Positions 1 to 61,192 of a stretch of DNA of 64,000 nt are shown here, piece by piece. A program made the translations under genes and the position numbers. The stretch comes from Euglena gracilis (lineage: Eukaryota): assembly GCA_039621445.1 (NCBI GenBank), contig CP154954.1, positions 16,014,140-16,078,139 of the forward strand, given 5' to 3'. Numbering within the stretch: position 1 is the first letter of the stretch; every line of letters begins with the position of its first letter. The notes under the pieces were generated by a model that saw only the letters and a program-made list of their open reading frames with translations, did not search any database and had not been told where the DNA came from.

Positions 1-3000
1 ATAGATGTTAAGATTAAAATTATTGACCAATAAATAATTTGGTTTTCTATATTCTCAGAGAAAGGGCGGGCTTCAGCTTCTTTTCCGCATTTGCATTCAT
101 TTCACAGATTCATGAGCTGCAAAATGGGCTGACTGTTGCCAGGCTTAAATCCAAAACGCAAAGCCATTTGTTTCTTGCCAGCTGACACACCCCGTATCAA
201 CTGCATTTTTCCCATTCCCAAAATGCCATTTTCTTTGTGGTTCAGTGCACATGACATGGCGTGTCCATGACACCCCCCCCCCCGTGTCAACCGCACTTTC
301 CCCATATTTTGGCGTGTCAGGACGGGGGGGGGTAGGAGGGTGGTGTGGAATGGGTTCACCCAGTTAGTCTAACGTTTATGGTAGGGTTTAGGTTTGGTGT
401 CACCCTCCCCTCAAATGAACCCCCCCAATATAAACCACCTGGGGGCTTTGTTTGGTGACCAAGTATGACCCCCATGCCGATAAGCATCGCAGAAGCGGCA
501 CAAGACAGGAAAAACCCCCAAAATGCATTGTTTTTTTTCGACAGTTTTTCACGTCCTTTTTGTGGATGTTTAGACGGAAAGTTTGATTGAACTACCCACG
601 AAAGGAACGATCGATGGAATGCCACTGATTGATGGTAATTAGTCAGCTTAGCCTCCCTGGTGCCCTTTGGACGGTATGTCCGCCATTTCTGAATTTGGAG
701 TGATCCAAGGTTTGCTCTACAACAAAGACGGAATACTGCTTTTCTAGTTTCCAGGAGAAGGTCCGAGAGGCACCCCGGAAGCACCAGGTTCCAGGCAGCT
801 GAGGTGGGTGTTTCTCCCAAGTATGTTATTCGATGTTTTCGGTCGCTGTTTCCAAAGGCCATGTTGCGTTCATCCACCCTGGTGATGAATCAGATTCCAA
901 ACATCAAATGTTTCTTAATTTTGATGTATCTTTTTTAATTTGTATATTAAGAATTCATTACCTGAATACCATCCAGCGCACAGACAACACAGGTGCAAGG
1001 GGTGCTGCACCCATGCACCGATGTGATGTGTCGGCACGAGATTCCCCATTTGTTTTGTCAGGTGTTGGTGCTCTAACAGGAAGAAATATCGACTGGTGGG
1101 CCGGGGGGGGGTCTAATGGGGAACATCCGGGACCACATCCCAAAAAGGTCAAATTGTTTCTTCCAGCGCTTGGATTCAAAATGCTTTTCCCATTGACGAG
1201 ATTTTGTCAGGAAGTGCAAAGATTTTTTTGGACGATTTGAGCAAAAAAATTCATGTCCCAAGACAAAAAGTAATGTGGTGTCAATTTAACCAGGTCACTA
1301 TTTCGGGGGGGGTGTTCCCCACCCCCTGCTCCCCTTGAGTAGTGGAGGGCATGAACCCTGGACGGGATTTCAAGACCCCCAGGGAGGATTTTATTGGGAG
1401 CTTATACTTCGTCAACCCGCTTAGCTGTGCATGTGGCATTCAACACCTCCCCACCTTGCTGAGGCTGGGTTCCACTGGGGGCTCGGTTGGTTACCCAACC
1501 GCAAATTTAGTTCCCTTACTGTACACAGAGAAGCCAAACTATCGGGCGGGTGGAATCCCTGGGTGCGATATGGGTCAATGCGCAGATTTTACAAGAGGCG
1601 TCCGAAGGACATTCGCAGAAACGGTTTTCTGCACACTGGCTGCCTGCTCTTTGGGAAGGCTTCTGGATTGATTGATGGTTGTATGACCTGAGGAGGTGCG
1701 GCCGTCCCTGTCTTGTTCGTGCATTTTTTGAATTCTCTTCTTTTGTTGAGGGTTTGGGTTTGGGTTTGGTAACAATTCTTTCCCCTAGCAAAAAGGGGGC
1801 ATGGGGTGCCAGCCCGTTGGTTTCCCTGGAGACCAGAGATCTCAGGCCTAACCACCCCTGCTCTTCCCCTGACAGGGTTCTCCGGTTAGCCTCCGCCACC
1901 GGCCCCCCCCAAACCATATGGCCGTGCCGTTCAGCCTCATGCAGCAGCTCCCCGGTAAGTCCGACCTGTGGCTGCAGCTGCGGGGCTCCGAAGCTGCCCG
2001 AACCGCACCTAGGCCACATGATTATGGTACTACCCAAACCATGACGTTTCATCTCAACCGCCTCCCACCAGTTTTCTGTGCAAAAAGTCCATCTTTTTTG
2101 AGCAAAATTCCCAACAAATATCCCCTGTTCCAACGTTGTCCCTTCCATCCAACTGTTCGAATTGTTGTCCCTTACGTATCTGTTGGAGTATTTGAGCATT
2201 CCAGGCGTGAGGGCAAAAAAAATCCCAAAAAACCAAAATCGGGAAGGTTTCATTTTGATTTTTCTGGGATTCCCACATCTGGAATTTTCTCCCCAACCCG
2301 AATTCCGCCTGAATCGTCCTTTGGTTGGTTATTGGACCTGTATGGATTTCTGTCGGCCCAAAAGAGGGACGTCTGTGCGGGGGAGGGGGGGGGGTTATAA
2401 GTTGTGCCTCAGAGTTCTCCAGAAGGTCCTCATTATGCGCTCAGTTGTTGGTGATGGAAGGCACATAAAAATGGAAAATGGTTTTTTCTTTTCCTTCTTT
2501 TTTTTCTCCCTTCCTGGCGTCTGGCCTTTGGTCTTTTCATTTGAGGGTGCCCCCCAACTTCGCCCCCACACCCAGTCTTGTATCTAATGTTGACCAAGCG
2601 CATAGGGGGGGGTTGCTGGTTTTGCGATGATGTTTGCAGAGCAACTGCTGCATGGTTTTGGCACCAAAGGGGTTCCAGCCTCGCGACCCCCCCCCCCTGG
2701 CCCCATCATGAAGAGAATTTTAATTCTTGTTCAGCCCCTCCGAACGCCAGCTGGACTGCAATGTATTTTGCCTTCGAAGGTGCGCGCTTGGGTGAAAGAA
2801 GGGGTAAAACGGGTAAAAAATCGACTTCCTACTTCAGAATTTGAATCAAAAATCAATTTTTTGTGTATTTGCTGATTTTCAGGCCTTTTATTTTTTTTGA
2901 GGTGTCCAGTTCGAGCCCAAGTCGGGTCACGTTCCAACCAGCAGACCTTATTTCCGGGGGTTGATCCAGCGGCCTGTATGAACTTTTTCCAGCTCTCGAG

Positions 3001-28417: not shown

Positions 28418-28561
<144 letters not shown>

Positions 28562-29039: not shown

Positions 29040-29079
29040 CGGATTTCATGCTTCCTAGCACGAACCGGTGGTAAACCCT

Positions 29080-30302
<1,223 letters not shown>

Positions 30303-35100: not shown

Positions 35101-35341
35101 TGCCGTGTGGTGTGCTGAGTGTGTGCCCATCCACGCACACGCACTGTACCACAGTCGTTGTGAAACAGCTGTAAACAGCATGATATGGAGTTGAAGCAGT
35201 ATCCAAGGGGGTGGTCCCCTATGGTCGTGTTAATCCAAACAGCTCATTTTTGTGGTGTTTACACCCAGTCTGGAAGAGGCACGCAATCATTCAGAATGCG
35301 CACCTGCGCACTCCGCTTCCGAAATGCGCGGATGCGCATTT
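32103..35341. repeat. Dispersed array of ~13 copies of the palindrome GAATGCGCA-NN-TGCGCATTC
   Basis: Copies near 32103, 32403, 32997, 33095, 33124, 33393, 33815, 34490, 34801, 34852, 34889, 35294 and 35321. Confidence 0.8.
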
Positions 35342-38300
35342 TCACTAAAACTGCCTAAATTTTGTGACTCAACAAGAAAAGTGCATTCCCGGCCGTGAGG
35401 TTCTTGATTTTGGGGATGCAGGGCAATGCAAGGCGATGTCGGCATTTTTTGGCCACTGTTTGACGTTTTCAGCCATTTTGGCCACATTCGGCTGTTTTGT
35501 TTGCTGCTTTGACCTTTTTTTGGCCATTTGAGGTCTTTTTGATTTGATTTTGATTTGAGGTTTATGGATCGTTGGACGAATCGTTACCGGCATATGGGGG
35601 CGAACCATTCAGGCTGTTTTTCTGTTGACACATGGACTGGGGTGCAACTTTGCAATGGTCAACAGAGAGTTTTTCAGGAAAAGAAATATCGGCAGTATCT
35701 TGGCAAATTTTGTGTCAACGTCTTGAAGAGGGAACCAGCAGCACCGGCCCAACAAAGTAGTGGAGGCAGCTATCCCCTCAGACCAAAGCGTTGCCCCCCC
35801 GGGTGGCAACGCTTGCTGGGGCCACAATGGATGGCCAAGTATGCACGGTAAGAGTTTCGGTAGGCTGTGCACAAATTGGCGAAGAATATTAAAATTTTGG
35901 GGCCAAGGTTGCAAGTTGTGGCCGCAGGCCAACTTTAACAAGGCCAAGTTAAGAAAGGAAAAGAAAGGACAAGTGGTGTAACGGCCCGCAGTGCCACTGG
36001 CAGTGCCACCGCAATTCACCTCACACCTGCGTGGCACCTCCCTCCAGGGGACAGATGGGTTTTCGAGAACCAAAGCAACCAGGGGGGTGGGGGCGGGGAG
36101 GGGCAAGGCCAGTGGTCGTGTTTGCACTGTCGTTGTTGGCGACCAGCCTTGTGTTTTGGAGGTGGTGGCTGGGATGCGCGGATTTTGTGGTGGTGGGGGG
36201 GGTGTGGACGGAGCTTCGCGTCCAAGGGGGTGTGGTTTTGTGGTTGGGGTGGGAGGGGGGTGGGGACCGCCCCCCGGGTCATTTCGCCAGACTGGCGCTT
36301 GGGGTAGTGTGTTTGGAGGCTGGGTGGCATGTTTTTTTTTTCCCCGCCAAGTTTGTGTGCGCCTTGGGGGGGTGGTTTTGGGGTTCGGGGGGCGGGGGGG
36401 TGGGGGTGGGGGGTTGGAGGGGGGGGGTGATTTTCTGGTTGGCTTGGTGGTTGGTTGTGGGGATGGTGCTTTCGGGTGTTCGGTTAGCGGTGGCGTGGCG
36501 TAGGGGTGGCGTGTCCGGAGGGGGCAGTCGGATCGAGGCGGGGGTGTGTCGGCCGCATGTGGGACGTGGCGGACAAGTATGGAGTTGCCCAAAATGGCTG
36601 TTTCGATGTGTTTTGGGTGTAAAAGTGTTGTGGTGATTTCGCGGTGTCTTTGTTTGTGGTTTTTTGTGTTTTTGGGGTTTTGCCTTGTGTTTGGTGGGTT
36701 TTCCTTGGGGGGGGGGGTGGGTTTGGGGGGGGTGTTGGGGTAGGGGGTTTTGGTTGATGGGGTGGTGTTTGAGTGGGGGGTATGTGGTTTGGGGAGTTGT
36801 GGTGTTGGGGTGTTTTTTGTGTATGGGGGGGTTGTGTCAGCGGGTGTTTTGGGTGGATTTGTTTTGTGGTGGGGTGGTGGTTGGTCTGATGTTGGGTTGA
36901 GCTGTTGTGTTTGTGGGTTTTTGTGGGGTGTGGGGGGGGTTTTGGGTGGGGGGTTATTTGGGTATTAGAGTGTTTTGTGGGTTTTGTTTTGGAGCTGAGG
37001 TTGGGGTTGGTTGGTGGGTGGGGGGGTGTTTGCCGGGGTGGGGGGGGGGGGTGTGGGTGTGTTGGGGGTTTGGGTGTGTGGGGTGGGTGTGGGGGTGGTG
37101 TTGTGGGTCTTGTTGCTGTGTGGTGATTGTGGGTTGGGGTTTGGGTTGGTGGGTTCCTGTTGTTGGGGTTCTCGTGGGGTTTGTGGTTTTGGGGTGCTTC
37201 CTGCTTTTGTTTCGTGCTGAGGGTGTCTTCTTTTTCATGATTGTGTCCCCATGGGTGTGGAATGTGGTGTGATTTCTTTTTTGTTTGTGCACTGGTTTGG
37301 TTTCGTTTCTGTGGGTGGCTGTCCTCTCTTGTCCTTCTCTTTGCTTGGACCCACCCCCCGGGCAACGACATGGAACAACAAACCGCATCAAAAGGTTCAA
37401 AGTATTTGATTGGGTTTTACAGCTCGGATACCAAGGGGACATCCATTGGGTAAAAACGGGCTTTTTCAAAAAGCAAAGAGTTTTGTGGTTTTGATTCTGC
37501 TTTGTGAAGGGGAAAAAGGAGTGTCTCATTCCGTTTATGGTCCCACTTTCCAACCTACTTCCTCTTTGTGCGGGCAACACCACTCTGATTCATATTTTCC
37601 AATGCTTAGATCGGCGGGCCAATGCGGTTTGGGGCTGGCAAGGCGGCAGTCATTGGAAAATGATTTGCCAGCCAGGGAGTGTTCTGTGGTGTTCACTGAA
37701 CCGACTCCCCTCACAACACGCACAGCTGCTGTTGGAAGTGCCAGGAATCCGAACTGACCTCACCCCAGTTCCCCATAAGCGCAGCTCAACCCGCTTTTTT
37801 TTCAGCCCATCTGTGTGGAAGGGTCCAGGCATTTGATGTGGAGGTATCTCCTCTTCCCCCTCGTTTGGCAGCCTCTCCTCCTTACATGCAAACTCGTTGG
37901 CCTTCGGCCTTAACTTGCGATCTTGCCCCCCCCTTTAATGTTCTTGGCCAATTTTGAATTTTGTGCTGGACTGCTGAAATTCTTAATATGCAATTTGGTC
38001 CCCTAAAGTTGGCACCCCAGCTTTGCCGTCAATCGTGGAGGAACATTCAATCCAGTCGTGTGACAGTTTCATTCAATCAATTGTGTGTGTTTGGAACTAG
38101 CCAGGAGGAGACTAACGGGAGAAAGCGTCCTCACAAAATGCATTGTGCTTGCACACGGGGTCCTCCGCAATTTGCATTGATGTCCCATTCCTGACCCACC
38201 CACAAATAGAAGAACGGGTGCGCTCGTAGTGGACCGGCGGTGGGGGGGTGCATTTTTATGTGGACACTGCGCTTGCAGGACCCTGTGCTTCTTTTAAGGG

Positions 38301-39162: not shown

Positions 39163-42100
39163 TAAAACATGTGGATTGTATTGCAAAAGAATTTGCAAAA
39201 TAATTGGAAGCAAAATAAAAATAGCCCCCCCACAAAATAAGACCCCAGGTCCACTGTTTTCGATTTTTTGCTCAAATCTAATTTTTATTTTTGGAGGCTT
39301 TTTTTAATAGTTTGCTGTTTACACCACATTTCGGGTCTTAAGGGGACAAATTTTGTTCCTAAAGCGTTGAGAGTGCCAAACCCCCAAACCAGTCAGACCT
39401 CCTCAAATGAGGCGGCTCCTTTTTTTTTTTTTTTAACAAAGAAAAACCAAAATAAACAAAAGAAAAAGAATAAAACGGGCGATTGGTGGTCTATTTTTTT
39501 TTTTTTTTTTTTTTGATACATTTTTTTTTGTGTAATTTATTTTTTTTTTTTGCCTTTTTTTTTTTGGTTTTTTTAGGAAATGCAGGTTGGTCGATTTTTT
39601 TTGGAATATTTTTTTTTTGTTTATTTTTTTTGTTGCGGGCTTTTTTTGCATTTTTAGTTGGGCTTTTTTTTTTGACCAGAGTTTATGTTGGGCTTCTGGC
39701 CACTGTTTTTTTTTTTTGACCACACCAAGTCAGAGCCCTGCCGGCACAGATGTTAAGAGTATTTTTCAAACATTTCAGCAGATTTAGTAACAGATGTGGC
39801 CAATGTGGCTACTGCGGCAGGTGCGGGGATGCGGTTACTGGATGCAGCAACTGGAGCAGAGAGCAGGCAGGGCACCGGAGGGTCAAAAGTCACCAAAAAT
39901 TTGCCTGAAGCCAACAAAAAATAGTTGAAAAGTGTGTTCCGAAAATTGAATAAAAGGGACCAAACAATGCCAAAAGGATTTTATGCCGCCTTTTCTCACC
40001 CATATAATCCTGTTAGCGACCAAACAGTGGCCAAAAGGATTTTCTGTTTTTCTGCCGCATTTCTCACCCCGCACAAATCCGTATAATTGCCCGCATTAAT
40101 CCGAATCATTCCCCCCCCGCATAATTTCGACAATTATTGCCTTGTTTACCGACAATGCATAAAGGATAAGTGACATGCAGTCTGTCCCCTACACCCATTT
40201 CATGTTTTGAGAGGCTTTCAGCTCCATTTCAGCATCTTGGACCTCCCACATCTGCAGCCCTACCCCAGACCACTTTCGCCGCCTGTGGTTGCTCTCCACT
40301 GGTTCCTATAATCCGGCGGCCTCCACTTCCCTCTGCACATCCCTCTGGACCAGAGATTTTTTTTTTTCAGTTTGGTGACCCAGGGGGGGGGTTTTAGACC
40401 ATCCCCGTTTTTAAAGTAAATTCCTGGTTGCTCTAGCAGTGTGCTGTTTTACTCTGCCTACGTGCGACTGCTTTTGTTCTTTTTTGAAGACGATGATGTT
40501 AAGATTGCGAAAGGTGCCAAAGTGAAAAGGCCAAAGTGCTGAAAAGCTTTGTTGGACCCTTGTTTGTTTGGCTTTTTTCTTTTTCAAGCTTTGGGCTCCC
40601 ACTCTTGATCCTCCCCCATTCTTGGCCCCCATATACACATTGAGGGCAAAAGTTTGGCTTCGCGCCGTGCAACCTTGTCCCCCCGCTAATTTTTTGGTCT
40701 GGATGTTTGTCATTGCCTAATTTTTAACATTCGACTTTCCCCCCAAATCTGCCCTCGGGGCCGTACCTTCATTTGGTTGGTCCCGTGTGTGAGCCCGCGT
40801 GGATGGGGTGGATGGAGTTCATTCTCCATCTCAAACTCAAACTCCATTTGACCTTTTTGCAATCAATGTTCAGCACTTTAGTATTTTAACGATTCCTTAA
40901 CTGCAAAAGGGGACATGACACTATATTATATTCATTTTCACTACTTTATTTTGCCAATTTCTCAAACTTTGGCCAACAAATTGCATTTCAAGTCAGAGCG
41001 GCAATTTTTTTTTTTTTTATTTCTTTGTGTGTATTTTTTTTTTTGTGGCAATTTGTTTTTTGCAGTCAGTTAACGCTTTGCATTAGGTCATACATCCAAT
41101 TCAAACCCGCCAGCGTTTTTGGTGGGAGGTTTTGGTGCGGCATGTTTGAGGGGGGTGTCGTTCCTGGCTCCAAAGACACATTTATCGTGCACGTAGGGTT
41201 TCACCAGAACCACAGCCCCCGGCGGGGGGAGCACTGCCCATGGATAAGCAGGTTGGCAGATCATCAATGGGCAGGACAGCAATTAGTGTTCAATGCCCGT
41301 AGCAGGTGTACGTACAGACACATAGTTACGGGCGTTTTTTAAAAAAAAAAAGTGGTGCCGGGGCTGGAAGGGGGTTTTTTCCTGTGGGACAAAGCCCGAT
41401 TTTCGACCCATCATCGAAAATCAACTCACAGAAGAGGTCGCCGAAGGGGAAGCCCTCCAGCCCCCCAGGCCCAGGTGGTACCCCCCCCCCAGAGGAGAAC
41501 GGAAGCCACCGGGGACAATTTTTTTCGGCTGCAACCACCCAAAAACTGAGGTGTCATTTTCTTGAGACCGACCATTATCAAAAATGACATTTTGACCAAA
41601 TTTGCCGAAAATTTCGTTGTTGGCGTTTTGTCTGTTTGTCTTTTTTTTTTTTGCTGCGGCTGCCTCCACCAAAGCCAAAAGCGGGTTCTCGCCGTCCTCT
41701 CCAAACCCAATGCATATATCAAGGAAGTTTATTACTATTTCAAACCGAGCCTGCTTTGGTGGGAGCGGTCGGGGAGAGCGGCCTGCTCGCTTCTGATTTG
41801 GGGCATTCTTTGGTTTCCAGTTTAACCAGCACCGTTTTTATTGACCCCTGGGTCCCTCAGCAATCCTCTGACTCATTTCATTTAGGCCTTTGATGGGTTA
41901 CACAACTCAAAGCAAATCAGCAGGACAGAACCTTTGGGCACGGTCGCCCAACAGTGCCAAAAACAGTGGATCCCTGCGACCACTACTCAAGGCTGCAGGT
42001 CAGAGGGTTTGCATGACCCTCAGGGAAAAGACTTTATTTTGCCTTTGGAATTTTTTTTTCCAGTCTGGCTACATCAAAGAGGGCGAATGGTATGCCTTTG

Positions 42101-43157
42101 TCCATCCAGCTGGAACCGGCCACCGAAAATCCAGCAAAGGCTGGTTTGGGGGTTTCCAGCTAAAATTTAGAGGTATAACGGCCAAAATCCTCAAAATACC
42201 ATTTTTGCCCCCCCCCCTTTCTTACAAAGATTTTTGCTGTTTCAAAGTTCGATGCCTGGCTCAGAAGCTTTTCTTCCCCTCGGGGGAGAAAACCCACTTT
42301 TGGGTAACTCTATTTTTGGGTCCAACCTCCCTGAACCCTTCACACCTGAGCCAAGAACTTTCTTTTGGCAAAGAAGCAAATTTTTCCAAAGTCCGTCACA
42401 GCAGAATGTTGACAATCTGTTTTTTCTTCTTCCAGAAGTCAGTGTATGTCAGTGCATGCCTTTTTGCAATTGTGTGTACTTGTGTGCGGTTTTATACAGT
42501 GATTTTTTTTTGCCTGCCCGTGTGGATGTTTTGCACCCCCCCCCCCCTGGGTGTCCCCCCACTTTTCCATTTTTCCCCAAGGCACACATTTTTAGGCCAA
42601 TGTTTTCATGCAAACTTTAGGAATAGCTGGGGGCCCTCACCCCCCCCCCCATTCTGGCTTGGAGGTACCTGACCACCCCCCCACCCATCAGGCGTTTCGG
42701 TGTGGCCCCGTTGATGTTGATATGGCGGCTTGGCCACAAGCCCAGAGAGGGGACAGTTGGCCCAAAACCCCAACGGCTTCCACCCGCAACGCAGGGCTAC
42801 AGGGCCCCTCCCTGCCCCACTTCTTGCCTCCCAAGTGGATGGCGAGTGGATGTCCGTCATGCGCAGGCATCCCGATGCGCTGCAGCCCCTGCAATGTGGT
42901 CTGCGACAGAACTATGCGTGCGTGGGCTTTGTTGTCGGATTGTGTGTTTATTGCGGAACGAGTTGGGAGGAGAACCAGCGACCCGAGCTTCCTGAAAACA
43001 TCTGGATTCTTTTCCACCAACAGCAATTTTGAGAGACAGACCAGTTTTGAGAGGGGGAATTAAAATGGCAGTCAAAACAAATTGATGGTGAAGATATCAC
43101 GGCAGCTGTTTTTTGTTGCACCCACCAATGGGTTCAAGCACCCCCAACCCAGCCCCA

Positions 43158-43398
43158 GGCGCTTGGCTCCACTCCTCCTTGCATGTGCACCTGTCCCCCT
43201 AAAGTTGGGCTTCAGCCTTCCCTTGCCACCTTGGCCGCCCATTTTTTAAGGTTTTTGGCCCATTTTGCGCATGCCGAAATTCTGAACATGCAAACTTGGC
43301 CCCCTAAGTTGGCCCTCCCGGCCTTGCCATCACAATTGACGGCAAGGCCAGGGTTCCAACCTTCGGGACAAGCGCAGCCAAGTCGGGGGCCAAGCGCC
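43158..43398. mobile_element. MITE-like element with GGCGCTTGGC TIR
   Basis: GGCGCTTGGC…GCCAAGCGCC termini. Related copies occur at ~30418-30562 (inverted), ~31848-31995 and ~37865-38025, sharing CTCCTCCTTACATGCAAACT. Confidence 0.6.
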
Positions 43399-43639
43399 CA
43401 GTATGCAATTTGCCCCCCTTTCAATCATGGCTTGGGCAAATCCCCCGGCTGGGGGGGTGTGGCCGATTTGGGCCACAGAAATGAACCAAGATATTGGCCC
43501 GGAGGAGGTCAGGCAGATGGAAGGAGGGGTCCCGGACCTCCCAAGTGAAGTCATCAATGAACATTCACTGGGGAGGGGTACCCTCGGCCGGTGAACCTCA
43601 CCAGTTTGAGGCTCAGGGGTGAAATTTTGATGTGCCTTT

Positions 43640-44700
43640 TCTGTTGTGTATATTTTTTTGTTCTTTTTCCACACCCCCTGCTCAGCCTGCAGTCCAATTT
43701 TTGGCTGGTCTAGAGGTGACCGCACGTGGACTGGCACGGGTACTTGCACCGGCACCCGCACCGGCACTGGCACTGGCACGGGCATGGGCAATTGCACCGG
43801 AACGGGCATGGGTCCACCAACACTGGCCTTTCCAACACACATCGGTGGGCCCCATTGAATTCTGGCGCTCCTACCTGTGAGGCACCCTCCGGGATGGTGC
43901 CTGCGCAGGGAGGGCTGGTCAAGGCCTCGGTGGCACCTTCGAGGGCCTGGACACGGCTTCCGGGGCATCCTTCTGCATAGCACTTTGCATGAGGGTGAAG
44001 GCCTCAACGGCAACACTTGGGACGGCACCTGCACAGGGGGGAGGGCTACGCATTGCCACCGGGGCACCCTCTTGGATCAAAACGCGGTTGATAGGGCTGG
44101 CCGCGTCCCCCTCGGCACCCTCCAGATTGGCTCCGGCTCCACGAGGGGGGCTGCTCGAGGCCTCACGGGGGTCCTCTGCTGTGTTCAGCTGGATGTTGGT
44201 TGGAGGTTTGGGAAATGGCTGCAAACCCTCCGAAACAAAACGGACCGCCCCGGCAATGGTGTGTCGTCGGCCCCTGGTGCCTGTGGTGTACCGTGCGGCT
44301 CTTAGGTGTGGACCTCCTCCTCCACAACCTTGACGATGGGGGCTCCGAGAGGCAGTGTGGGGATGGCCGCCAGGGTGTTCAGGCACGAGCTGAGATCGCT
44401 CATTTGACTGCTTGGAGGTGGAACTGGGGGGATTTGCGGGGGCGGGGGTTGTGGTCGGTGTGGGACAAAGGTCTGCCAGAACGATGGATTGTTGGCTTGC
44501 CTGATGTGTGGGGCTGGGTACCTGGGGTTTGGGGGCACGAGCTGACCCTTGGGAGCGCAGGTATTGAAGCATCTTCCGAAACCAGTTGTGGAACTCCTTG
44601 GTGCGGACATCGGAGGCCTGCCACCGGCGTTGCAGGAAGCAGCTCCAGACCGAACAATCGAGTTTCTCAGGGTAGGGCGACGTTGGCGATGCTCTCTTTG
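43640..44700 (-). pseudogene. Degenerate proline/valine-rich ORF (PVPV repeats)
   Basis: One minus frame reads QIPPVPPPSSQMSDLSSCLNTLAAIPTLPLGAPIVKVVEEEVHT*…PRAAPLVEPEPIWRVPR…PPVQVPSQVLP…PMPVPVQLPMPVPVPVPVRVPVQVPVPVH, with three stops. Confidence 0.35.
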
Positions 44701-45075
44701 AAGTCCCGCATATGGGAGAATGCTTTCCTAGCTTGCGATGAAGCGTCCCATCAGCACCCCACCAAGCTGCGGGCGGGGTCGGTGGTGTCTCACTTGGGGT
44801 ATGGAAGGGGACTCCTCCTCGCGGTCGAAGAGCGTGGTACGTAGGCGATGATGCGGCAGCGGACACCGAGGGAGAATACGCCAGCAGGGTCTGTGAGGTC
44901 TGGTTGAGGGTCATAAGTAAATTCTTCACAAGTAAGGGTACGTTTTGTGCAAAAGTACATCAATGTGGTGACCTTTGGCTCAAGGCACTGGTAGGAACAA
45001 ATCCACGTTTTTGGATTGTGGTCTTGGACCTGACCTGGAAAATCGGTGCACAGGATGCGATTTGGGTGCTGTGCC

Positions 45076-45389
45076 CAGGGCGGTCCTTAAGGGACAGGAA
45101 AGTTTTTTTTTTATTTCCTTAAGGACCGCCTCCCTTTCAGCCAAAGGGCCGGCTAAGGGCCAGACTGGGACTTGAACAGGGACAAAAATTAAACAGTCAA
45201 AAAACACAGTTTTTGATGATTTGGGTGGATGGACGATGGTCCAAGGGTGCCAGGAATCATTTTTTTGCCTGATGTCGACCTGTTCTCGCTGTAAATGCCA
45301 AAATTTCGCCCATTTTCCTGTGTATTTTTCACTGAGTGTGCTGGGACAGCGGAGTTTTTTTTTTATATATTTGCTTAAGGACCGCCCTG
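45076..45389. mobile_element. hAT-like MITE, 314 bp; exact nonconventional-intron geometry (45073-45394)
   Basis: Perfect 16-bp TIR CAGGGCGGTCCTTAAG / CTTAAGGACCGCCCTG and perfect TSD GCTGTGCC (45068-45075, 45390-45397). Confidence 0.93.
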
Positions 45390-45397
45390 GCTGTGCC

Positions 45398-48168
45398 CAG
45401 CGTGTCGGCTTCCACAGAAACCCCAGATGTACGCCTGCTCTCTTCTGACAGGGTTCTCCGGCAAGTCTTTGCCCCGGCCCCCCTCCCAAATATGGCCGCC
45501 CCGTTCAGCCTCTTGCAGCAGCTCCCCGGCAAGTCCGACCTGTGGCTGCAGCTGCGCGGCTCCGAAGCGGCTCGGACTGCGCCCAGACCACATCACACGG
45601 TAGACCCCGAAGATCGTTGCCTGCCACCCTGTGAAGTTGCCTTCATCCCCTGGCCTCATATCCAATCTTGACCATGCACATGGGGGGAAGAGACCCGGTT
45701 TTGTGATATTGATTGGAGAGGCACGGGAACTTTTGCCGGACCCCGGTGTGTCCAGCCAGCCAGCCAGCGTCTTTTCCCAGCCTCGGACCCCGTCCCCTGC
45801 ATAGCCCGGTTTTAATCTCTGTCCAGCCCCCGAAGGGCGGCTGCAGTGTAGTGTATTTTTTCTTCAAATGCAAAGTGCATGGGTCAAAACGAGGCAAACG
45901 GGGGAAAATTTGTAAGAATCGGTCGAATATGGCCTGCCTAGCTCAAAAATTGGTCAAAATCGATTTTTTTTTACATGATTTGCAGATGGCTTTTTTTCCT
46001 TCAGTTTCGATATTCTTCTAATGCCTGGCTCAACCCCGCAACAAGCCTGTTCCATCCGGGAGACTCTACGACAGAGGGGTTGGTAGCAACATTTCGCTGA
46101 CCGATATTGCGGCCTGCCCCCGCTCTCCGTCTTGCAGGCTCATCATACTCTCGTCGTGGCAGGAGGCATTGCTGGCTGACAAATTTGCAAGGGTGGACGG
46201 ACCCATGAGCGCCAGCGGGAATGCTTTTGAATCGGTCACACCAGCGAATGATAAAACTGGCAGTAGTTGCCACGTTCTCGCATGCATTGACGACGTCAAG
46301 TCCCACTCTTTTCAGCCACACGTGTGTGCCGTATGATGCAAAAAAGTTAGTCGATGATTTTGGGAAAGCGGCCGAAACCGATGAGGTATTTGGGCAATGG
46401 GAGGGTGTGTGCTGTCCACAGTCCCCGTGTTTTGGCTGTGGGGTGGCAGCAGAGAGATTCACCCTACCTGAGATGGAGGGCAGGTTGCTTTCAATTCAGC
46501 GGGCTTTCCGGCCACCTAATATTTAATGGTTCAGACCAGCGCTGCGCAGGCAAGACTGAAAACTGGTCGTATGGTCATGGTCATAACACTCTGTCCATCC
46601 TCTTACGGTTCCAGGAGTTTACCAGACGCCCACCCTGTTGTAGGTAAAGCCCTGCTTTCAGGCATTATTTTTTTTAAGTCAAATAACTTGAAACATTTCC
46701 TAGGTTTTAAAGTAGGCATTTTGCAGGGTTGCTTTAGTTTTTTTTCCTTCGGATTTTCTTTCTTTGGGTTTTTCGGTGTTTTAGGATTCTTTAGATTCCC
46801 AGGATATTTTTTAGGGGCCGCCTGGGTCCAAAATTACTAAGGTGAAACCCGTTTTCCTCAGTTAGCGTGGTGCCATAAATTCTTTTTTCCCGGAGTTGGT
46901 TTGCTTTTTTGTTTTTGCAACATCATTTTTGCTCGTTCAGAAACAAGCTTTGCCAGAATGATTTCTAAGAGTTTTTTTTATATAGAGTTTTAAGGCTTTT
47001 TTTTCAAAATTTTGGCCATTTTTCTGGTTTTTTAAGGTTTCCCCAGCACTGCTCCCAAGTCCCGACCCGTCCAAACCTGGGGGCCCTCTCCCCCCTCGTC
47101 GTTCCCCCAAGTCCCCCTACGGCTCCCAGTCCTCTCCTCCAGCCTGCGAGGCCGGATTCCCATGTGATTTTTTGTAAGTTTTGCCTGACATTGGCAGACG
47201 TGGACAATTGAACATTGGACAGATATTCTATTTTGGAACGTTCCAACGTTGCTGTGCCGGGGGGGTCAGTAGTTGCGTTACACTGCAGGCCCGCGCCTTT
47301 GGGGGACAGGGCTGCCAGCTCCCTGCCCGCCCCCGAACCCCTGGCCCCCGGGGTGCTGGACTGCTGCCCCCCGCACTGCGGGCTGCAGCTCGCCGGGGCT
47401 CCCCGGGCTGACTGGGCGGCGGGCCCGTCGGCGCCGCTCACCCGCCCGTCCCCGCACCGTGCTGCCGGATGTGGGGACGTGCAGGGTTGCTTATGCCTGC
47501 CCTCCCCCTCCTGGCTGCTTTTTTTTTGGTCTGTTGGTTTGGGGAAACCGATTAACCCCTTTTGGCAGGGCGTCTGGTTTCTGGCGTCTGCATTTCTGTT
47601 GACGTTGTTTTGTGTGGTTTTGTTTTGGGGGGGAGTTTGTATTTTTGCCCCAAAACCTGACTTGTCCAGCGTACCTCCCGAGTGAGTGCTTGCCACCAAG
47701 CACCTATGAAATGACCGGGCGTGAGCGGGCATGACTGGGTCTGGGATTCTGGATGACTGTGGGTGCTTGCCTGCTACTCATTCCAGCCAAGCAACTGCAT
47801 GGGTGGGACTGTCTCACTGGCAGAGCCCGGCATTATCATCGCTGACGTGCCGCTCTCCCACGCACTCCTGCGGCCCGAGGTACATGGCGGCCAGGCAGAT
47901 CCTCTGACAGACGGGCAACTGATGCCGCGGTGAGGGTCTGCCTGCCTCTGATCCCCCTCTGATGGGTCCCAGCCTACCTCCCCCCATGTCGCCCAGGAAG
48001 GCGGCAGCCCACCATACGGTGCACAATCCGTACTCCTTTGACGGTGCTTTGGCAATGTTCAGTTTGCTGTACAGCAGTGTGTGTGTCTGGGGGGCAGGGG
48101 ATGTTCAGCTTTCGTCTAACTCCCGGAGTAAACGACGCGAGTCAAGAAGGAAAGCGCTCATTTCTTGA
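45398..48168 (+). pseudogene. Paralog B of the HNPY-motif gene family (gene or pseudogene)
   Basis: Colinear exon-like blocks homologous to A and C lie at ~45450-45595, 46105-46460, 46534-46610, 47043-47142, 47300-47485, 47787-47888 and 47950-48168 (…HTVHNPYSFDG…). Confidence 0.6.
47889..47949 (+). other. Nonconventional intron (61 nt), paralog B
   Basis: GGC-CAGGCAGATCCTC...GAGGGTCTGCCTG-CCTCT|G forms a 13-bp terminal stem with one G-U pair. Same position and length as 7419-7479. Splicing gives PLSHALLRPEVHG|DPPLMGPSLPPP. Confidence 0.85.
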
Positions 48169-48654
48169 TTCACCATTTCAATCATTGTTCTGTTCATTTT
48201 ATTGGATTTCCCATGAAAGTCTTCCAGAATTGCACATTTCTGGGTTTTAGCAGTTGGAAGTTGTCCACATTGAGGACTGCAGCCCCATTTCAAGGCCGCA
48301 CTCTTTTTATTCGGTCCTCCAAGGTTTAGGGCCAATAGGTCTTCCTCGTTTCTAAACCTGGCCCCAGGCCCCTTGCGATGGCCCTCAATGTGTGGTCCAC
48401 GTTGGCTCGTGATCAACTCAAAAGTCTGACAACCCGTACCCAGACTTTCCCCTCCCTCCTCCCTCCCTCCCTCCCTCCCTCGCTACACCTTTTGTGCACC
48501 TGTGCACTTGGGCAGGTGCACCCCCGTATGTACCGTGGTAGCTTCTGTGGAGATGATTGGAGCTATTGTCTTTTCTGTTTCAGATAGAGCTTTCAGCCCC
48601 TCCCCCCGAATGAGATCTCCAATGTAAGCGCTCGGTTTAGATGCCGGTTTGCAT

Positions 48655-51585
48655 TTACACCTGGGTCCTGCTGATTACCGACGGCGCCTGCTTGGAGTAC
48701 CTGCTGGTGGAGTTGTGATGGCAGCTGCGACTCCACTGGACAGAGTTGCTGCTGCGGGATGCCTAGGTCCTGTATCGTACAGTGCGCCACCGCGACTGCC
48801 CTATGGCGCAACAGCCCATCGTGGCCCCTGAGGACGTCCAATGCAGATGAAGGAGTCATTCAGCAGACACCTGAGTCCCGGCGGCATCCACCTGACTGGG
48901 CCTGACTGGAATCAGTGGTCACGAGGAGAGAGCGGAGGGGTGTCGGGCAGGCAGCAGATGGCGGGGAAAGTCTGTGTGCTACGACAACTTCTGGAAGCAC
49001 TAGATGCGGTCCACCCCGTTCGAACCTGTCCACACCCAGGACTGCACCGCCATAGCCATCGTGGTCATCGTGCAGACGACCCTGGTGGCCATCCCGGAGT
49101 ACCCAAAGTGCCCTTCCGTGGAGAGGGTGCTGTGCTGCGTCCCACTGGTGGCCAGGCGCCCAGTGCAATCAGTCCTGGCGGACTTCGTGCAGCATCACCA
49201 ACATCGCTGTGTCCCCGCTGGATGGCAAAGCGTGGACGTTCCCAATCAGTACACTCAGGACTTTGTTTCTTCTTTCTCGTGCTATATGCCGTGAAAAACA
49301 ATGATTTTCAGTGGATTGCTAGCAGAATTGCGGATGTGCAAGCTTTGTGGTATCAATTGGTTGGCGCAATTGTCTTTACAAGTCTTCACAGGCACCGTTT
49401 GTGCAATTGTGAAATTCTAATGTTTCAATAAGTGTTTGGGTTAGGGTTAGACAGTTCGAGTAAGGGATGGCTCGACAACAAAATCTGAATCCTGCATTTT
49501 TTTTGGGTTGCCTCCGCGGAGCCCCCGTGGAGGCTCCGCAGAGGATCTGGGTAACCAGTCTCCACAGAGGCTCCGCGAAGGCTCCGTGGGTCCAAACAAC
49601 CAGCCTCCACAGCGGTTCCTCAGAGGCTCCGCGGAGGCTCAGGTAACCAATTTGCCAGAGCATGGCAAGACACATGGAAATGAACGGGAAAATCTCAAAA
49701 AAAATGGAACGCAAAAAGACATTTGAGCCTCACCTTGCACAGAGTAGTGATGCCATTTTTGTTCTGGGGGGGCATCACCTCCCCCAGACGAGGCCGGTGT
49801 CAAAAAATGACGCCAAAAAAGGAGCCAACAAAAAGTGAATTGTATGCCAAAAACTTGGCATTCAATGAGATCCAAGTGTGGGGTGACAGGGGGGGGGTGG
49901 CAGCGAAGGGGTGTGTGTGGGGTGGCAGCAGGGGGGGGATGTGGGGTGTGGGGGGGTGGAGGGGGGGGGTACTGTGGGTGCACCACTTCACGTCATCTCT
50001 CACTTTGAGATTGAAAATTTTAGCACTTCGAGCCAAAAACAAAATAACAACAAACCGGCCCCCAAAAAGGCTGAGGTATGATGCCCCAGGGTAAATTATA
50101 AGCCGAAAAAGACTGCACACACACGCACACGAACATTACTCCCGTTTGATAAATCTTTTCTGTGGAATTTTCGATACTGCGGGCAAAAATCACAAACTTT
50201 CGATCGAGGAGGGGAGGTGTGGGAGGTCGATGCTGCTGGTTTCTTTCAGGTTCGGTCACACAAATGAGCGACCCTGAAAAGCATTGGCGGGCGCGGGGCC
50301 CATTTTCCCTTCGAAACAGCCAACCTTTGCCATCGCTCCCCAACCATTTACCAAGCTCAAAAACGATGCCTTGGGTCGTTAACACTCGGAGAACAGGAAA
50401 AAAGGCCGAGAAATGATGCCCCAGGGCCCATTATAAGCCGACAATATTATAAGCCGACAATATTATAAGCCGACAATCCTGAACGTAACCCAAACCCTAG
50501 CTCAAACCAAACCCCAACCTGAACCCTTAAACCAGGGCCCCACCTGCTGGTGAGGTCCTGGCGTGGTCAATTGCCCTTTTTCTGCAGTGGAAAGCAATAC
50601 TCTTCCATTCACTTGCAAATTTTCTTCCGTTTTGCACTCATTTTTTCCATTCTTGGAAGAGTTTTGCATTTGCATGGTTTTTTGTGTGTTTTTCCCTTTA
50701 ATTCTTTTTTCCCAACATTCTCATTTTTTATTTTTCAGGATTTTTCTTTGCATTTTTTAGCACACTTTTGCACGCTTTTTTCCCTGAAGATGTCCAAAAG
50801 ACAGATACAGACACTCAGACACACATATTGACAAACAAAAAAACATCCAGGCAGAGATGGGAAAATCCGTGATATTTTTTTTGCGGAGAGAAACTGGTCA
50901 AAACAGCATTCATTCATTCATTCATTCATTCATTCATTCATTTCATAAAAACTGCAAAAAAATCAGCTAATTGAGATTTTGCAACTACAAAAAATCTTCA
51001 GAGTCCCCTCACAGAGCTGGGGAGCTTCATAGATCAGGGCTATAATGGGGAGTTAAGGATAAGACTCCATGGCAGCAACCATCCTGTAGCAGCGGTTGCC
51101 GACTTCTGCTGGCAATCAGGGATGGGACAATCCAAAAGCAAGAGCAGACCCTGAAACAAACGAGGAGAGTGGGGCAACCTGTGAATGTCCAATGCTCTCA
51201 GGCAATTGGGCTCCTTCAGTAACTCCCAATTTGTTTCTTGTATATCCTTGTATAAAATCCTTGTGTACAGATGAAAATTCTTAACATATTCAATAAATCT
51301 ACAGTGTGCCCGGCAAATATCAATTTTCGGGAAATTGTCACCTGTCAAATCAGTGAGTATGGAGGGAGGTGACAGGTCCCTATAAAGATGGGTCAGCGGT
51401 GCAGTGCTAGAAGCCACATTCTCCCGGGGAGTCCGGGTAGCCAACACAAAAATCCGAAAATGTGGTATTTCCACACATTTGCGATCAGCAGCCACAGAAA
51501 TTCAAGCAATTTTTTTCGACTCGGGAAGTGTGATTTTTCGACAAGAATGTGAAAAATCTGAAAAACATATAGGTTACAGGTCTGC
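48655..51585 (-). repeat. Inverted segmental duplication, copy 2 (empty Tc1 site)
   Basis: Matches 11761-14886 plus 16292-16438 in reverse. It has a single TA at 48802-48803 where copy 1 holds the Tc1 element. Confidence 0.95.
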
Positions 51586-52699
51586 GGATAAACCAGGTTT
51601 TGAATAATGCTGAGCTCTTAATAAGCGCTCACCCACCCCTTCATTGACACCCCCATATAAACCGGCCCACTCCATGGAGCTCTGTTGACTGAAATGCAAA
51701 GGCTTTGTGCCGGAAACAGGGCGCCGGGGGGGTGGAAACCCACTAATTTTTGGCTCAAAATACACCTTTTCCGGGTCTGGGGAGCCAAAAAAACAGCGCT
51801 TTGAGCGAAAAAAATTTTCGATTTTTTTCGTGTTTTTTGACCCGAAAATGACCAACAGTGGGTTGACGGCCCATGACGGGGCGCTGGCGGGTCGAAAAAA
51901 CGCTCATTTTTCGGCCCAAAAACAGTTTTTCTGGGTCCAGGAGGCCAAAAAACATCGCTTCGAGCAAAATTTTTTTTCGATTTTTTTCGACTTTTTTGAC
52001 CCGAAAATGACCAAAAATCAATGGGTTGGCGGCCCAAAACGGGGTGCTGGCGGGTCGAAAAACGCTCATTTTCGGCCCAAAAACAGTTTTTCTGGGTCCG
52101 GGAGGCCAAAAAAACAGCGTTTCGGGCCAAAATTATCACGGTCTACCCAGGGGGGGGGGGCGGGGGGGGGGGTTGGACCCCCTTTTCCCTGGTGCTAAGC
52201 TTCGCTCTTACTCTAAAGAGATAAGAGCTCAGCGACCAGGGTGTGACGTAGAGCTGAGCACTTTGGGAGACTACCCCGGCGTCCCAGCCCGGCCCGGCCC
52301 GGCCCGGCCCGGCCTGGCCCGGCTGCGGCCCTGTGGCCCGTCGATGCCCCGCCCAACCTGGCCAACGCCTCGGCGGCCCAGCCCGGGCTGGGGACGGGGG
52401 TTGTTTTTGAGCTCGTTTTCGGCTCAAAAACACCTTTTCCGGGTCCGGGAGGTCAAAAAACATGGTTTTGGACAAAAAAGATTTTTTCGAATTTTTCCAA
52501 CTTTTTGACCCAAAATGGCCAAGTCCACCGGCCGGGGGGTCCGCTCGGAAAAATTTTTTTCGCTCAAAAACAATTTTTTTGGTGTTCTAAAGTGAAAAAA
52601 AAATGTTTTTGAGCGAAAAAAAAATTCAAAATTCTGGATCCCGACCTGCCTCCCGACGCCCAGCCGCCCTCACGCCCGCATTATCCAAAAATAATCTCA

Positions 52700-54060
52700 A
52701 GGGTGGACGGGCGTCCACAAGGGTGGACGGACCCACGAGTGCCAGCGGGATTTCTTTTGAATCGGTTGCGTCACTGAATGACAAGACTGGCAATTGCCAC
52801 GTGCTCACATGAATTGACGACGTCAAGTCCCGCTCCGTGCAGCCACACGTGTTCCTCATACGACGCGAGGAACTTTGTCGATTCTTTTGGGAAAGTGACC
52901 AAAACCGACGAGGTATTTCGGCACAGGGGACAGCCCCCATTTTCGGCTGCGGGGTGGCAGTGGAGCAGAAGCCACCCCACCCCAGATGTAGGGCAGGTTG
53001 CCTTTGCTTCAGTGGGTCCAGCCAACACCCTTCCCAGCCACCTGAAGGACCCCCCCCCCTTTGGCAGGGCAGAACAGGAATCGGCCAAACATCCAGGGTG
53101 GTGGGTAGGGGGGTCAACCCACCCCCCATCTCCCGGGTTGGGGGGGTTTCCGCCCCCCCCCCCCCCCACCAGGCCTTCCCGTAAAGCCCTGCCCCTCGTG
53201 CATTGAAAACCATCGGTCAGCTGTAGTGACAATTGAGGGATGCATGACCAGAAGCACGGTTTTATCCAAAGACCAGGAACACCAGAAAGGATGGGCCAAT
53301 TTTTTTTCCACGATCTTTGACAAGATTTTTGCCCATGCAGTGCCTGAAGCGGCATTTTTTAAAAAAAAATCTGATATTTAATGTTTCAGATCAGCGCTGC
53401 ATGTGCAAGACTGAAAACTGGTCATGTGGTCATGGTGATACTACTCTGTCCACCCTCTTACGGTCCCAGGGGTTTTCTGGAAGCCCACCCTGTTGTATGT
53501 AGAGCCCTGTTTTCACGCATTGTTTTTTTAAATCAAACATTTTCAAACATTTTTAAGTTACTCTGAAGTTATTTTTTTTATTGTCTTTGAGGCGTTTTAA
53601 GATTTTTTAAGGTTCTATTTTCCAAGGGTCGTCTGGGCATTTGACAGGCCCAAAGTTGAAACCCTCATTTTTTCGAGTTTGAGTGGATAGACAATGTTCC
53701 CCCGATGCCAAATTTTTTTCCGGAGTTATTTGTTTGTTTTTTGTCGAGATTTTGCGACTTCAATTTTGCTCGGTCAGATAAATATTTTGCCAGAGTAATT
53801 TTTAAAGGTTTTTTCAGGGGTTTAAGGTTTTTTTTCCAACATTTTGGCCAATTTTTATTTTTTAGGTGCCCAAAAATAATGTCTGCTTGCTTTGACCACA
53901 GACGGCTCATGGTCGGCAGGGAGTTGGATTCTGTGCCTGTCTCATGGCCAGCGTGATGTCCAGCACTGCCCCCAAGTCCCGACCCATCCAAACCTGGGGG
54001 CCCTCTCCCCCCTCGTCGTGCCCCCAAGTCTCCCTACGGCTTCCAGTCCTCTCCTCCATT
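52700..54060 (+). pseudogene. Paralog C, partial copy of the same family
   Basis: RVDGPTSASGISFESV..NDKTG.CHVL*IDDVKS matches B 46190-46300 with synonymous changes and one in-frame TGA. SDQRC..KTENWS.GHG..TLS.LLR (53390-53463) and QHCPQVPTHPNLGALSPLVVPP (53960-54060) also match B. Confidence 0.6.
53065..53191. mobile_element. Short (127 bp) derivative of the 3936-4556 MITE family
   Basis: CAGGGCAGAACAGGAATCGGCC…CCACCAGGCCTTCCCGTAAAGCCCTG; the TSD is decayed (CCCTTTGG / CCCCTCGT). Confidence 0.75.
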
Positions 54061-54091
54061 GCCGTGGGGGACCATTGGTGGCCCTGAACAG

Positions 54092-54187
54092 GTGGTGGCC
54101 AGTTTTGGGCCACATGTGTTGGCCAGTTTTGGGCCAGATGTGGTGGCCAGTTTTGGGCCAGACGTGGTGGCCAGTTTTGGGCCAGAT
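54092..54187 (+). repeat. 24-bp tandem repeat (GTGGTGGCCAGTTTTGGGCCAGAT) x4
   Basis: Direct reading; degenerate copies continue to ~54415. Confidence 0.9.
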
Positions 54188-57100: not shown

Positions 57101-57441
57101 TTGAGATTTTAGTTGCAATGTGCCCGAAGAAACTGAGAAAGCCAAGTCAGCTGTGGGCAGCCACAAACCTTGTGCTTGAAAGTTTGTTTACTTTTTGGGA
57201 AAAAGGCACTTCTTCAAATTTTGAATGCAAAATAGGCGAAAAGTTTGGCCTATCACAGGGTGTTCCTGGTCCTTGTGCCGTCCACGCTTCCGGTCATGGA
57301 TCCCTCAAGACATCATTACAACTGACTTTCAAATGACAAAAGGTGAGGGTGCTTCAGCTGGCTGGCAGGACCCACTGATTCTGAAGCCAACAAATGGGTT
57401 GGTTCTTCTGAGCTGCTGCAGCCAAAAGTGAGGGGCTGCGG

Positions 57442-58022
57442 CAGGGCAGAACGGGAATCGGCCGAACAGCCAGGGTGGTGGGTGGGGGGGGGGTCGTTCC
57501 CCCCCACCTCTTCCCGTATTTCCGGGAGCACCAATTTTTGGACCCGAAAAAGATTTTCCGGCGCCGGGTGTTTTTTTGACCCATTTTGGGACCCATATAG
57601 GGGGTCCCCCCCAAAACCCCCCAAAACCCCATTTTTTCACACCTTCCAAAAATTCAACATTTTCTCAAAAATGTTGATTTTGAGAGGTTTTTGAAGCAAA
57701 AAATGCCTTCGAAAGTCCAAAAAATTTCAACGAGAAAAAATGTCAGTAAAATTTGACTGTGCCAAAATTTGTCCACTTTTTTTGACCTTCGTTTTTTTCA
57801 CCCCCCTCCTAAAAACTACCAATTTTTAACCCTGAAATTTTTGAGATTTTTTTGTGAAAAAATGTGGGTTTCCATCAAAAAATCATGTGTTTTGGGTTCA
57901 TTTTTCAGAAAAAATTCAAAGATTTTTCCGGCCAATATCCCCGTTTTCCTGAAATCGGTGAAAATGCTGTGGTGGGTGGGGGGGTCGACCCCCCCCCCAC
58001 CAGGCCTTCCCGTTCTGCCCTG
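57442..58022. mobile_element. hAT-like MITE, copy in A'
   Basis: Same TIR and GGCTGCGG TSD as 3936-4556; ~40 bp shorter internally. Confidence 0.92.
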
Positions 58023-59919: not shown

Positions 59920-59985
59920 CAGGGAATTTCTTAAGCTGGACCCCACCCTATCCCGGGGGGGGGGGGCGTCCGGTTTAGCTGGCCG

Positions 59986-60020
<35 letters not shown>

Positions 60021-60159
60021 GGTTTCCACTCGACCCCCCTCCCCGGGGGGGGGGGGGAGTGGTAATAAAGTAAAACAAAGTAATGAGGGGGTCCAGCCAG
60101 CATTTTTTTCCAGCCAGCCGTTTGGACCCCGCCAGAGGGGGTTCTCAAGAAATTCGCTG
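59920..60159. mobile_element. hAT-like MITE, copy in A'
   Basis: Duplicate of 6455-6693 with the same termini and TSD. Confidence 0.88.
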
Positions 60160-60883
60160 AATGGGCCCCCTCCGAGGGCACCCAGGCTGACTGCGCTGCG
60201 TTCCCATCGGCTCCACTCGCCCGATCCCTGCTTCATGTGGTCGGACATGGGGACATGCAAGGTTGCTTATTCCTGCCTCCCCTCCTGACTGCCTTTTTTT
60301 TGAACCCTCATCCCTTCTCTTGGCCTCTTTGTCTGGTTTCTTTTTGGGGGCATGGCCTTTGGATTTTTGTCCCAAATCTGGTGGTTTACCCTTTGTACCT
60401 GCCCAGGGAGAACCCCACCAAACCAGGCTTGTGCTTAGTCGGGTGCCTACCCCACGGGGGAGTGGGTGGGTGCTAGGGGCAGGCACCCCATGGCACCCGA
60501 TCCGACCCCCCCCCCCCAGGGGGGGGTAGGGTTTTGGGGGGTGCCTGCCCATAGCAGGCAACCCCCCTCTGACCCCGGCGCCGAAGGCGCTGGGGGCCTG
60601 GGAAAGGCCATTTTCAATGAAGATTTTCTGGGCCCCCCGGACCCCTACCCCCCCCTGGGGGGTGTGCCTGCTAGGGGCAGGCACTCTATAGCACCCACCC
60701 ACCCTCCCCCCCTGGTCGGTAAGCACAAGCATGCACCAAATACCTGTGGCATGACTGGGCGTAAGCACCAATTTGCTAGGCAACTGTATGGATGGGATTG
60801 GATCTCGGGCAGAGCACAGCATTGCTGTAGCTGCAACTGACGTGGTCCTCTCCCACGCACCCCTGTTGCATCACGTACGTGGC

Positions 60884-60944
60884 GGCCAGGCAGATGCTCT
60901 GAAAGATGGGGAACTGATGTCGCAGTGAGGGTCTGCCTGCCCCT
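60884..60944 (+). other. Nonconventional intron (61 nt), copy A'
   Basis: Duplicate of 7419-7479. Confidence 0.85.

Positions 60945-61131: not shown

Positions 61132-61192
<61 letters not shown>

Follow-up and report, generated by a model that had tools for sequence, protein, structure and literature searches.

A probable young hAT-like MITE upstream of a Euglena gracilis gene, and a sister element in a coding exon that is a candidate for removal by the nonconventional splicing code

The window analysed here is a stretch of 64,000 nucleotides of Euglena gracilis DNA (contig CP154954.1). It contains three genes of a family of small Pro/Ser-rich proteins without a Pfam domain (E. gracilis EG_transcript_27631, 31777 and 19539). 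Two of the genes, copies A and B, belong to a direct segmental duplication of ~9 kb (1118-10306 = 54629-64000), the halves of which are 98-99% identical and lie ~53.5 kb apart; the third, gene C, is a paralog.

1875-7910, gene copy A, duplicate of copy B.
55385-61700 (end at ~61.6 kb), gene copy B, duplicate of copy A.
45452 to ~48.4 kb (48440), paralog C (gene C), ~80% identical to A/B in conserved blocks.
45438-45451, plus strand, pyrimidine tract and AG, the putative spliced-leader (SL) trans-splice acceptor of gene C, from alignment to copy B.
45492-45579, plus strand, coding part of gene C exon 1 (MAAPFSLLQQLPGKSDLWLQLRGSEAART...), 30/30 residues identical to EG_transcript_31777 (P0004).

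A profile made from three window ORFs retrieved EG_transcript_27631 (P0001; 184 aa, E = 2.4e-12) from the EukProt set of Euglena gracilis. P0001 maps exon by exon on copies A and B, and exons 1 and 4 are identical at 30/30 and 21/21 residues. The C-type transcript protein P0004 is 100% identical to gene C in exons 1 and 2. Between B and C, exon 1 shows seven synonymous differences and one non-synonymous difference, counted by eye on the alignment. The window also contains an inverted duplication of 4.7 kb (11761-16438 vs 51585-48657, ~91% identical), and what it covers may be one large repeat unit or several near-identical copies assembled together.

Upstream of gene C lies the element that the original prediction had singled out, with the following parts.

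45076-45389, non-autonomous MITE of 314 bp with CAGGG...CCCTG ends, recognised from sequence; sole copy within the window.
45076-45091, plus strand, left TIR CAGGGCGGTCCTTAAG, from inverted-repeat comparison.
45374-45389, minus strand, right TIR, reverse complement of the left at 16/16 positions, from inverted-repeat comparison.
45068-45075, left TSD copy GCTGTGCC, identical to 45390-45397 at 8/8 positions.
45390-45397, right TSD copy GCTGTGCC; base 6 (45395) is G, and base 6 on the minus strand is A.
45117-45130, internal 14-bp copy of the TIR core, which can form a 14-bp local hairpin with the left TIR.

On recheck, the TIRs and the TSD of this element proved as perfect as had been claimed (16/16 and 8/8), and the TIR match extends to 17/17 when the flanking C/G is counted. 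In the predicted RNA fold of the element both TIRs are paired, in the MFE as well as the centroid structure (z = -2.99). The sole long frame that spans the element (44980-45504, minus strand) has no Pfam match.

That the element is a chance inverted repeat or an assembly artefact is extremely unlikely. Apart from the window being rich in repeats and segmentally duplicated, nothing speaks for either reading, and both shuffle controls disfavour chance. The TIR 16-mer occurs three times in the window at up to three mismatches, compared with 0.44 expected, and none of 100 shuffles reached three; a terminus-free scan of the window (exact 10-bp TIR and 8-bp TSD with at most one mismatch) gave three matches, compared with one summed over 20 shuffles. 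The stretch is also present in independent DNA runs. In the DNA run, the summed contig depth over the element is ~600-fold (two to three orders of magnitude) above that of the flanks, a ratio that is not a copy number. This depth is consistent with membership in a multi-copy family, of which the window holds no second copy. Metagenome contigs contained 103 loci with an exact match to the TIR 16-mer. Among the 80 loci listed there was no inverted pair: 79 had a single match and one had two matches on the same strand, and we therefore take these to be chance matches and not family copies.

Five further CAG...CTG elements with duplications of 7-8 bp had been described in the window, and all five are present.

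3936-4556, CAGGG-type element, TIR 16/16, TSD GGCTGCGG 8/8; duplicate at 57442-58022.
6455-6693, plus strand, sister MITE in gene copy A, TSD AATGGGCG / AATGGGCC, 7/8; duplicate at 59920-60159.
11285-11729, CAGGG-type element, duplication of 7 bp exact, or of 8 bp if one boundary is shifted by 1 nt.
19208-19463, CAGGG-type element, TSD CTCCAGGT 8/8.
22783-22945, CAGGG-type element, TSD 7/8, gapped TIR.

The copies at 57442-58022 and 59920-60159, which the original prediction did not list, lie inside the 98-99% identical duplication and are thus not independent insertions, but correspond to those at 3936 and 6455. Of the six distinct elements in the window, one interrupts a coding exon (see below) and one lies inside an existing intron: the copy at 57442-58022 sits within intron 2 of gene B, and no empty site for it was found in C. 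Three elements have ...CTTAAG or ...TTAAG in common at TIR positions 11-16.

An 8-bp TSD does not follow from CAG ends by themselves, as shown by a CAG-ended element of 1405 bp (14887-16291, CAGGTTGCC... TIRs) that has a duplication of TA only. Its empty site is found at 48802/48803 in the inverted paralogous block, and it looks Tc1/mariner-like. Within it, 15546-15763 is a captured gene fragment that matches the gene A/B family at 95-97% over the upstream region, the SL acceptor and the first 16 codons. Elsewhere in the window, 32100-35310 contains at least six copies, in both orientations, of a 20-nt palindromic motif around GCGCAGGTGCGC; these make 14/14 inverted pairs at distances of 400-1800 bp, and no clear TSDs accompany them. 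Long low-complexity blocks (23650-25950, 28000-30800, 35600-37600), made of CAG/CAA repeats, TG/CA repeats and C/A-rich tracts, are open in all six frames. No match to Rfam and no tRNA was found when the window was scanned.

The structural hallmarks of hAT transposons are an 8-bp TSD and YARNG termini (PMC3014272). Both are present here, in agreement with the earlier description of the elements as hAT-like. The 8-bp TSD is perfect at the flagged element and two further elements and matches at 7/8 positions at two more; the CAGGG ends of the flagged element conform to the YARNG motif, and all six distinct elements have CAGNG at both ends. At 314 bp, with TIRs of 16 bp, the flagged element is short and lacks coding capacity. 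From these features we infer that the elements belong to the hAT superfamily. No transposase was recognised in the window (0 Pfam matches in 20 of the 81 window ORFs of at least 150 aa), and a protein search with ORF 18899-19870 gave no match.

It is improbable that the elements are MITEs of the Merlin superfamily instead. Merlin transposons also make 8-bp TSDs; two families reported from E. gracilis have 8-bp TSDs together with near-perfect TIRs (PMC8101967), and Merlin is the only DNA transposon superfamily that we found reported for the species in the literature searched. However, the conserved Merlin terminus is 5'-GG (PMC8101967), whereas all elements here begin with CA (CAGGG) and their ends read CA...TG, a comparison made with the terminal motif that the paper states for Merlin. 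Re-parsing the flagged element from GG destroys its TSD, and the CAGGG starts fit the hAT YARNG motif.

The host itself splices in a way that bears on these elements. The code of Euglena nonconventional introns has been defined by knock-in mutagenesis as 5'-N3-CDG/CH'G-N5-6|R, where the 5' spacer tolerated no change and the 3' spacer tolerated one additional nucleotide with some loss of efficiency (PMC12501133). We mapped sequencing data of the same organism on 42001-62000, using raw-read RNA runs X21 and X22, RNA contig run X15 and DNA run X1, with RNA reads placed at 95% likeness or more. Three junctions, 55515>56585, 60246>60792 and 60883>60945, occur in all three RNA runs (7, 4 and 12 reads in X21; 5, 6 and 6 in X22; one X15 contig each) and not in X1. 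None of them is GT-AG, and the RNA-only introns of the window match the N3-CAG...CTG-N5|R code (PMC12501133). Intron 60884-60944 reads GGC-CAG-GCAGA...TCTGC-CTG-CCCCT|g, and intron 55517-56585 (slid by 1) reads ACC-TAG...CTG-CCCCC|g, with a 9-bp helix from +4/-6. These junctions, together with exons up to 100% identical to E. gracilis proteins, confirm the premise that the host is a euglenid and identify it as a Euglena of the gracilis type.

Gene B has seven introns, counting 59917-60164 (see below). Five of the seven have the N3/N5 geometry, one of them with GGT/ACC triplets in place of CAG/CTG and an 11-bp helix, and two fit neither GT-AG nor the code. Besides intron 60884-60944, four of the other six keep a helix that starts at +4/-6. 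The 5' end of intron 5 carries a tandem 8-nt repeat, GGACATGG GGACATGC (60239-60261), and splicing is observed 8 nt upstream of the position that the inner CAA/CAG (CAGGG in paralog C) would set; the repeat may be the remnant of a TSD pair.

Two other features of the RNA data deserve mention. A join of 48039 to 61568 (3+1 reads and one RNA contig) connects the end of C exon 7 to the start of B exon 8 and skips 13.5 kb; its shorter side is only 27-33 nt, and its source may be another paralog that lies beyond the window. The highest RNA depth within 42001-62000 is found at 52150-53170, where hundreds of reads end loosely in poly-G or poly-C, 386 reads of X21 support an 'opposite strands' joint 52172/53167, and the summed DNA contig depth is ~1-2 million. 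Either an inverted repeat that is transcribed or an artefact of sequencing on G/C runs could account for this signal.

The flagged element fits the code on both strands. On the plus strand, 45073-45394 reads GCC-CAG...CTG-GCTGT|G, letter for letter as had been stated, and the minus strand reads AGC-CAG...CTG-GGCAC|A. When a TSD X1..X8 flanks CAG...CTG, cuts after X5 on both sides rejoin X1-X5 to X6-X8; hence cuts 3 nt before CAG and 5 nt after CTG remove the element and exactly one TSD copy. Beyond this, the code asks only that X6, with which the downstream exon begins, be a purine on the sense strand. The original prediction that 3 nt plus 5 nt make up one 8-bp TSD is therefore exact when set against the experimentally defined code (PMC12501133). 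We found neither a hAT assignment of euglenid introns nor a reading of their 3+5 spacers as an 8-bp TSD in the literature searched, which comprised the main texts of openly accessible papers.

Where does the flagged copy lie with respect to the gene C transcript? In copy B, one RNA contig has a loose end at 55385 that consists of an adapter tail and T8C, directly after ...cccctgacag, and this loose end matches the conserved 3' end of the E. gracilis SL (TATTTTTTTTCG; PMC4778363). The acceptor ...TCTTCTGACAG|GGTTCTCC is kept in C at 45451|45452, with the ATG at 45492. The gene C acceptor is assigned by homology to B, and that of B by the single contig. On this evidence, the mature mRNA of gene C probably starts at 45452, 62 nt past the end of the flagged element (45389). 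To the left of the element, a bin of 667 nt (44002-44668) has an RNA depth of 0-0.03 in both RNA runs. The acceptor downstream and the silent bin on the left place the flagged copy in upstream (outron) or intergenic DNA and not in an intron. Paralog B was tried as an empty site for the flagged copy and rejected, as the alignment of the left flank scores at the shuffle mean.

The original prediction had read 45073-45394 as a nonconventional intron, removed at 45072^45395 from a functional transcript, and we regard this as very improbable. It is true that the sequence fits N3-CAG...CTG-N5|R on both strands, that the TIRs are paired in the predicted RNA fold and that some RNA, at low depth, covers the bins containing the element. 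However, the putative mRNA start of gene C lies downstream of the element, and neither RNA run has more than traces of signal in the bin to its left; the element is apparently multi-copy, so that the few reads on it may stem from other loci. Neither the 45072^45395 junction, proposed as the check on this reading, nor a back-splice joint at the element appears among the 15 of 537 joints listed, all of which carry contig depth. We therefore place the flagged copy upstream of gene C in what follows.

The sister element is situated differently, as its copy in gene B interrupts a coding exon.

59917-60164, plus strand, sister MITE (59920-60159) and one TSD copy, with the code-guided excision GCG-CAG...CTG-AATGG|G; interrupts a coding exon of gene B.
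47295-47476, plus strand, paralog C exon, contiguous across the A/B insertion site (diverged empty site; 47378/47402); P0004 reads straight through.

In the protein alignment a single frame is kept on both sides of the sister insertion. Excision of 59917-60164 in silico yields an uninterrupted ORF of 212 codons from the exon 1 ATG over seven junctions (gene B exon model guided by P0001 and RNA-supported joints), while retention of the element leads to a stop five codons into it. P0001 reads ...GVLDCCPPQW|APSEGTQADCAAFPSAPLAR..., which is the predicted excision junction (CCPPQW|APSEG), and the exon upstream of this junction is identical at 21/21 residues. The sister insertion is the only one of the seven gene B introns that is absent from C and the only one with intact element hallmarks; its would-be TSD halves match at 7/8 positions, compared with 1-4 of 8 in the other gene B introns.

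Several observations qualify this picture. P0001 differs from A and B at ~5 places, with exon 1 as in B and the C-terminus as in A, and it therefore comes from a third, near-identical copy or allele; variants specific to A/B include the codons for Gln41 and Asn57 and the lack of an additional Gln in exon 5. This third copy may lack the sister element, and RNA reads, placed as they were at a threshold of 95% likeness, may likewise derive from a copy without it. In X15 and X21, the bin that contains exon 4 together with the initial 90 nt of the sister has about the depth expected of the exon alone, a comparison to which we give no weight, as the counts are tiny and the reads possibly derive from an element-free copy. 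No 59916^60165 joint appears among the 15 of 537 joints listed, where the joints of introns 2 and 3 are likewise absent; as the listed joints all carry contig depth, junctions seen in raw reads only may have been left out. A codon test of the interrupted exon in B vs C gave 12 synonymous and 24 non-synonymous differences in frame, compared with 10 and 23 in a shifted frame. The ends of the sister element are not paired in its MFE fold, and a protein search with ORF 59458-59931 gave no match. Taken as an in silico result, the excision makes the sister element a concrete candidate for a MITE that is spliced by the code.

We consider it probable that the flagged element is a young hAT-like MITE that lies upstream of gene C and is not an intron there, that its family fits the nonconventional splicing code, and that the sister is a candidate for an element removed by it. 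The MITE would have inserted by cut-and-paste, with an 8-bp staggered cut of the target, 62 nt upstream of the SL acceptor of a gene for a small Pro/Ser-rich protein (paralog C of the EG_transcript_27631 family). If transcribed, this copy would be discarded with the outron anyway. Given CAG...CTG ends and an 8-bp TSD, any such insertion would satisfy the nonconventional code, provided that base 6 of the TSD is a purine on the sense strand. Of the original interpretation, then, the arithmetic, the hAT hallmarks and an exonic sister whose removal restores the frame have stood, and the flagged copy as an intron has fallen: there is nothing unusual about that copy, a young MITE in upstream DNA. 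The family-level idea, that elements of this kind match the code, survives every test run, and it is further supported by the exonic sister and by the published 8-nt repeat (PMC4770533).

A more general proposal equates the 3-nt and 5-nt spacers with the two parts of a hAT-type 8-bp TSD and derives most nonconventional introns of euglenids, which number several hundred thousand, from such elements. We hold this tentatively, as a possibility that falls short of being probable. If true, every CAG...CTG MITE that inserted into an exon and had a purine as base 6 of its TSD would be, from the outset, an intron that can be removed without a scar, and recognition of transposon ends would be the task for which the excision machinery evolved or was recruited. 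Somewhat unlikely is a coincidence in which these are ordinary MITEs, CAG/CTG and 3+5=8 agree by chance, and the repeats at young introns come from double-strand-break repair. The authors who described 8-nt repeats at a young intron read them as a break-repair footprint (PMC4770533), the older gene B introns match at only 1-4 of 8 positions between the would-be TSD halves, and no splicing of an element was observed in the RNA data of the window among the 15 of 537 joints listed. Against coincidence, three independent numbers agree, namely the trinucleotides at the ends, the total length of the spacers and the 8-nt repeat at a young intron, and the interruption of a coding sequence attested by a transcript coincides precisely with an element whose hallmarks are intact.

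Where euglenid nonconventional introns come from, and why they have such odd, fixed spacers, are questions that have stood since the 1990s. A MITE origin was proposed in 2014 from inverted repeats, at a time when, according to the accessible text of that paper, no euglenid transposon was known (PMC3935182). A 2024 review took the idea up again, placing TIRs at +4..6/-8..-6 and describing 'TSD-like' junction repeats (PMC11282704), and the 2025 paper that defined the code restates it (PMC12501133). In E. agilis, where nonconventional introns make up 71.8% of all introns (PMC12501133), the strain-specific and recently gained intron 4 of gapC is flanked by eight-nucleotide direct repeats, which the authors attributed to break repair (Milanowski et al. 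2016, PMC4770533). A MITE origin and an 8-nt repeat at one young intron are thus already published. The 2014 proposal was made without any element in hand (PMC3935182); the window supplies families with intact ends and TSDs and a numerical reason for the 3/5 spacing. It also holds one coding-exon insertion with a transcript-attested 'healed' junction, which makes the MITE-origin hypothesis directly testable.

Comparison with known systems helps to place these elements. The nonconventional introns of Euglena (Nomura et al., PNAS 2025, PMC12501133) have CAG at +4..+6, CTG at -8..-6, paired ends, fixed spacers and a purine, and all of these are found in silico in the flagged element; real introns of this kind occur in the same window, and the flagged copy lies outside the mature mRNA as placed above. 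In the accessible text of that paper the origin of the introns is called 'MITE-like' and the spacers are not linked to a TSD. With hAT MITEs the flagged element shares the 8-bp TSD, YARNG termini, short TIRs, small size, lack of coding sequence and signs of many copies; it differs in that no cognate transposase was found among 20 window ORFs, and we found no report of hAT in euglenids in the literature searched. E. gracilis Merlin elements (PMC8101967) have 8-bp TSDs like those here, but their termini are 5'-GG and not CA. E. agilis gapC intron 4 (PMC4770533) is a young nonconventional intron with an 8-nt duplication, as insertion with an 8-bp TSD predicts, although the accessible text names no element family, TIR family or superfamily. 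A further parallel is provided by the introner elements of Micromonas, Aureococcus, dinoflagellates and others (reviewed in PMC11282704), in which insertion of a DNA transposon creates an excisable intron and the TSD gives part of the splice geometry. Introners rely on the spliceosome and on GT/GC-AG or variant sites, whereas the Euglena partner would be a pathway that does not look spliceosomal, and in the Euglena case the whole 8-bp TSD would be split 3+5 around paired TIRs.
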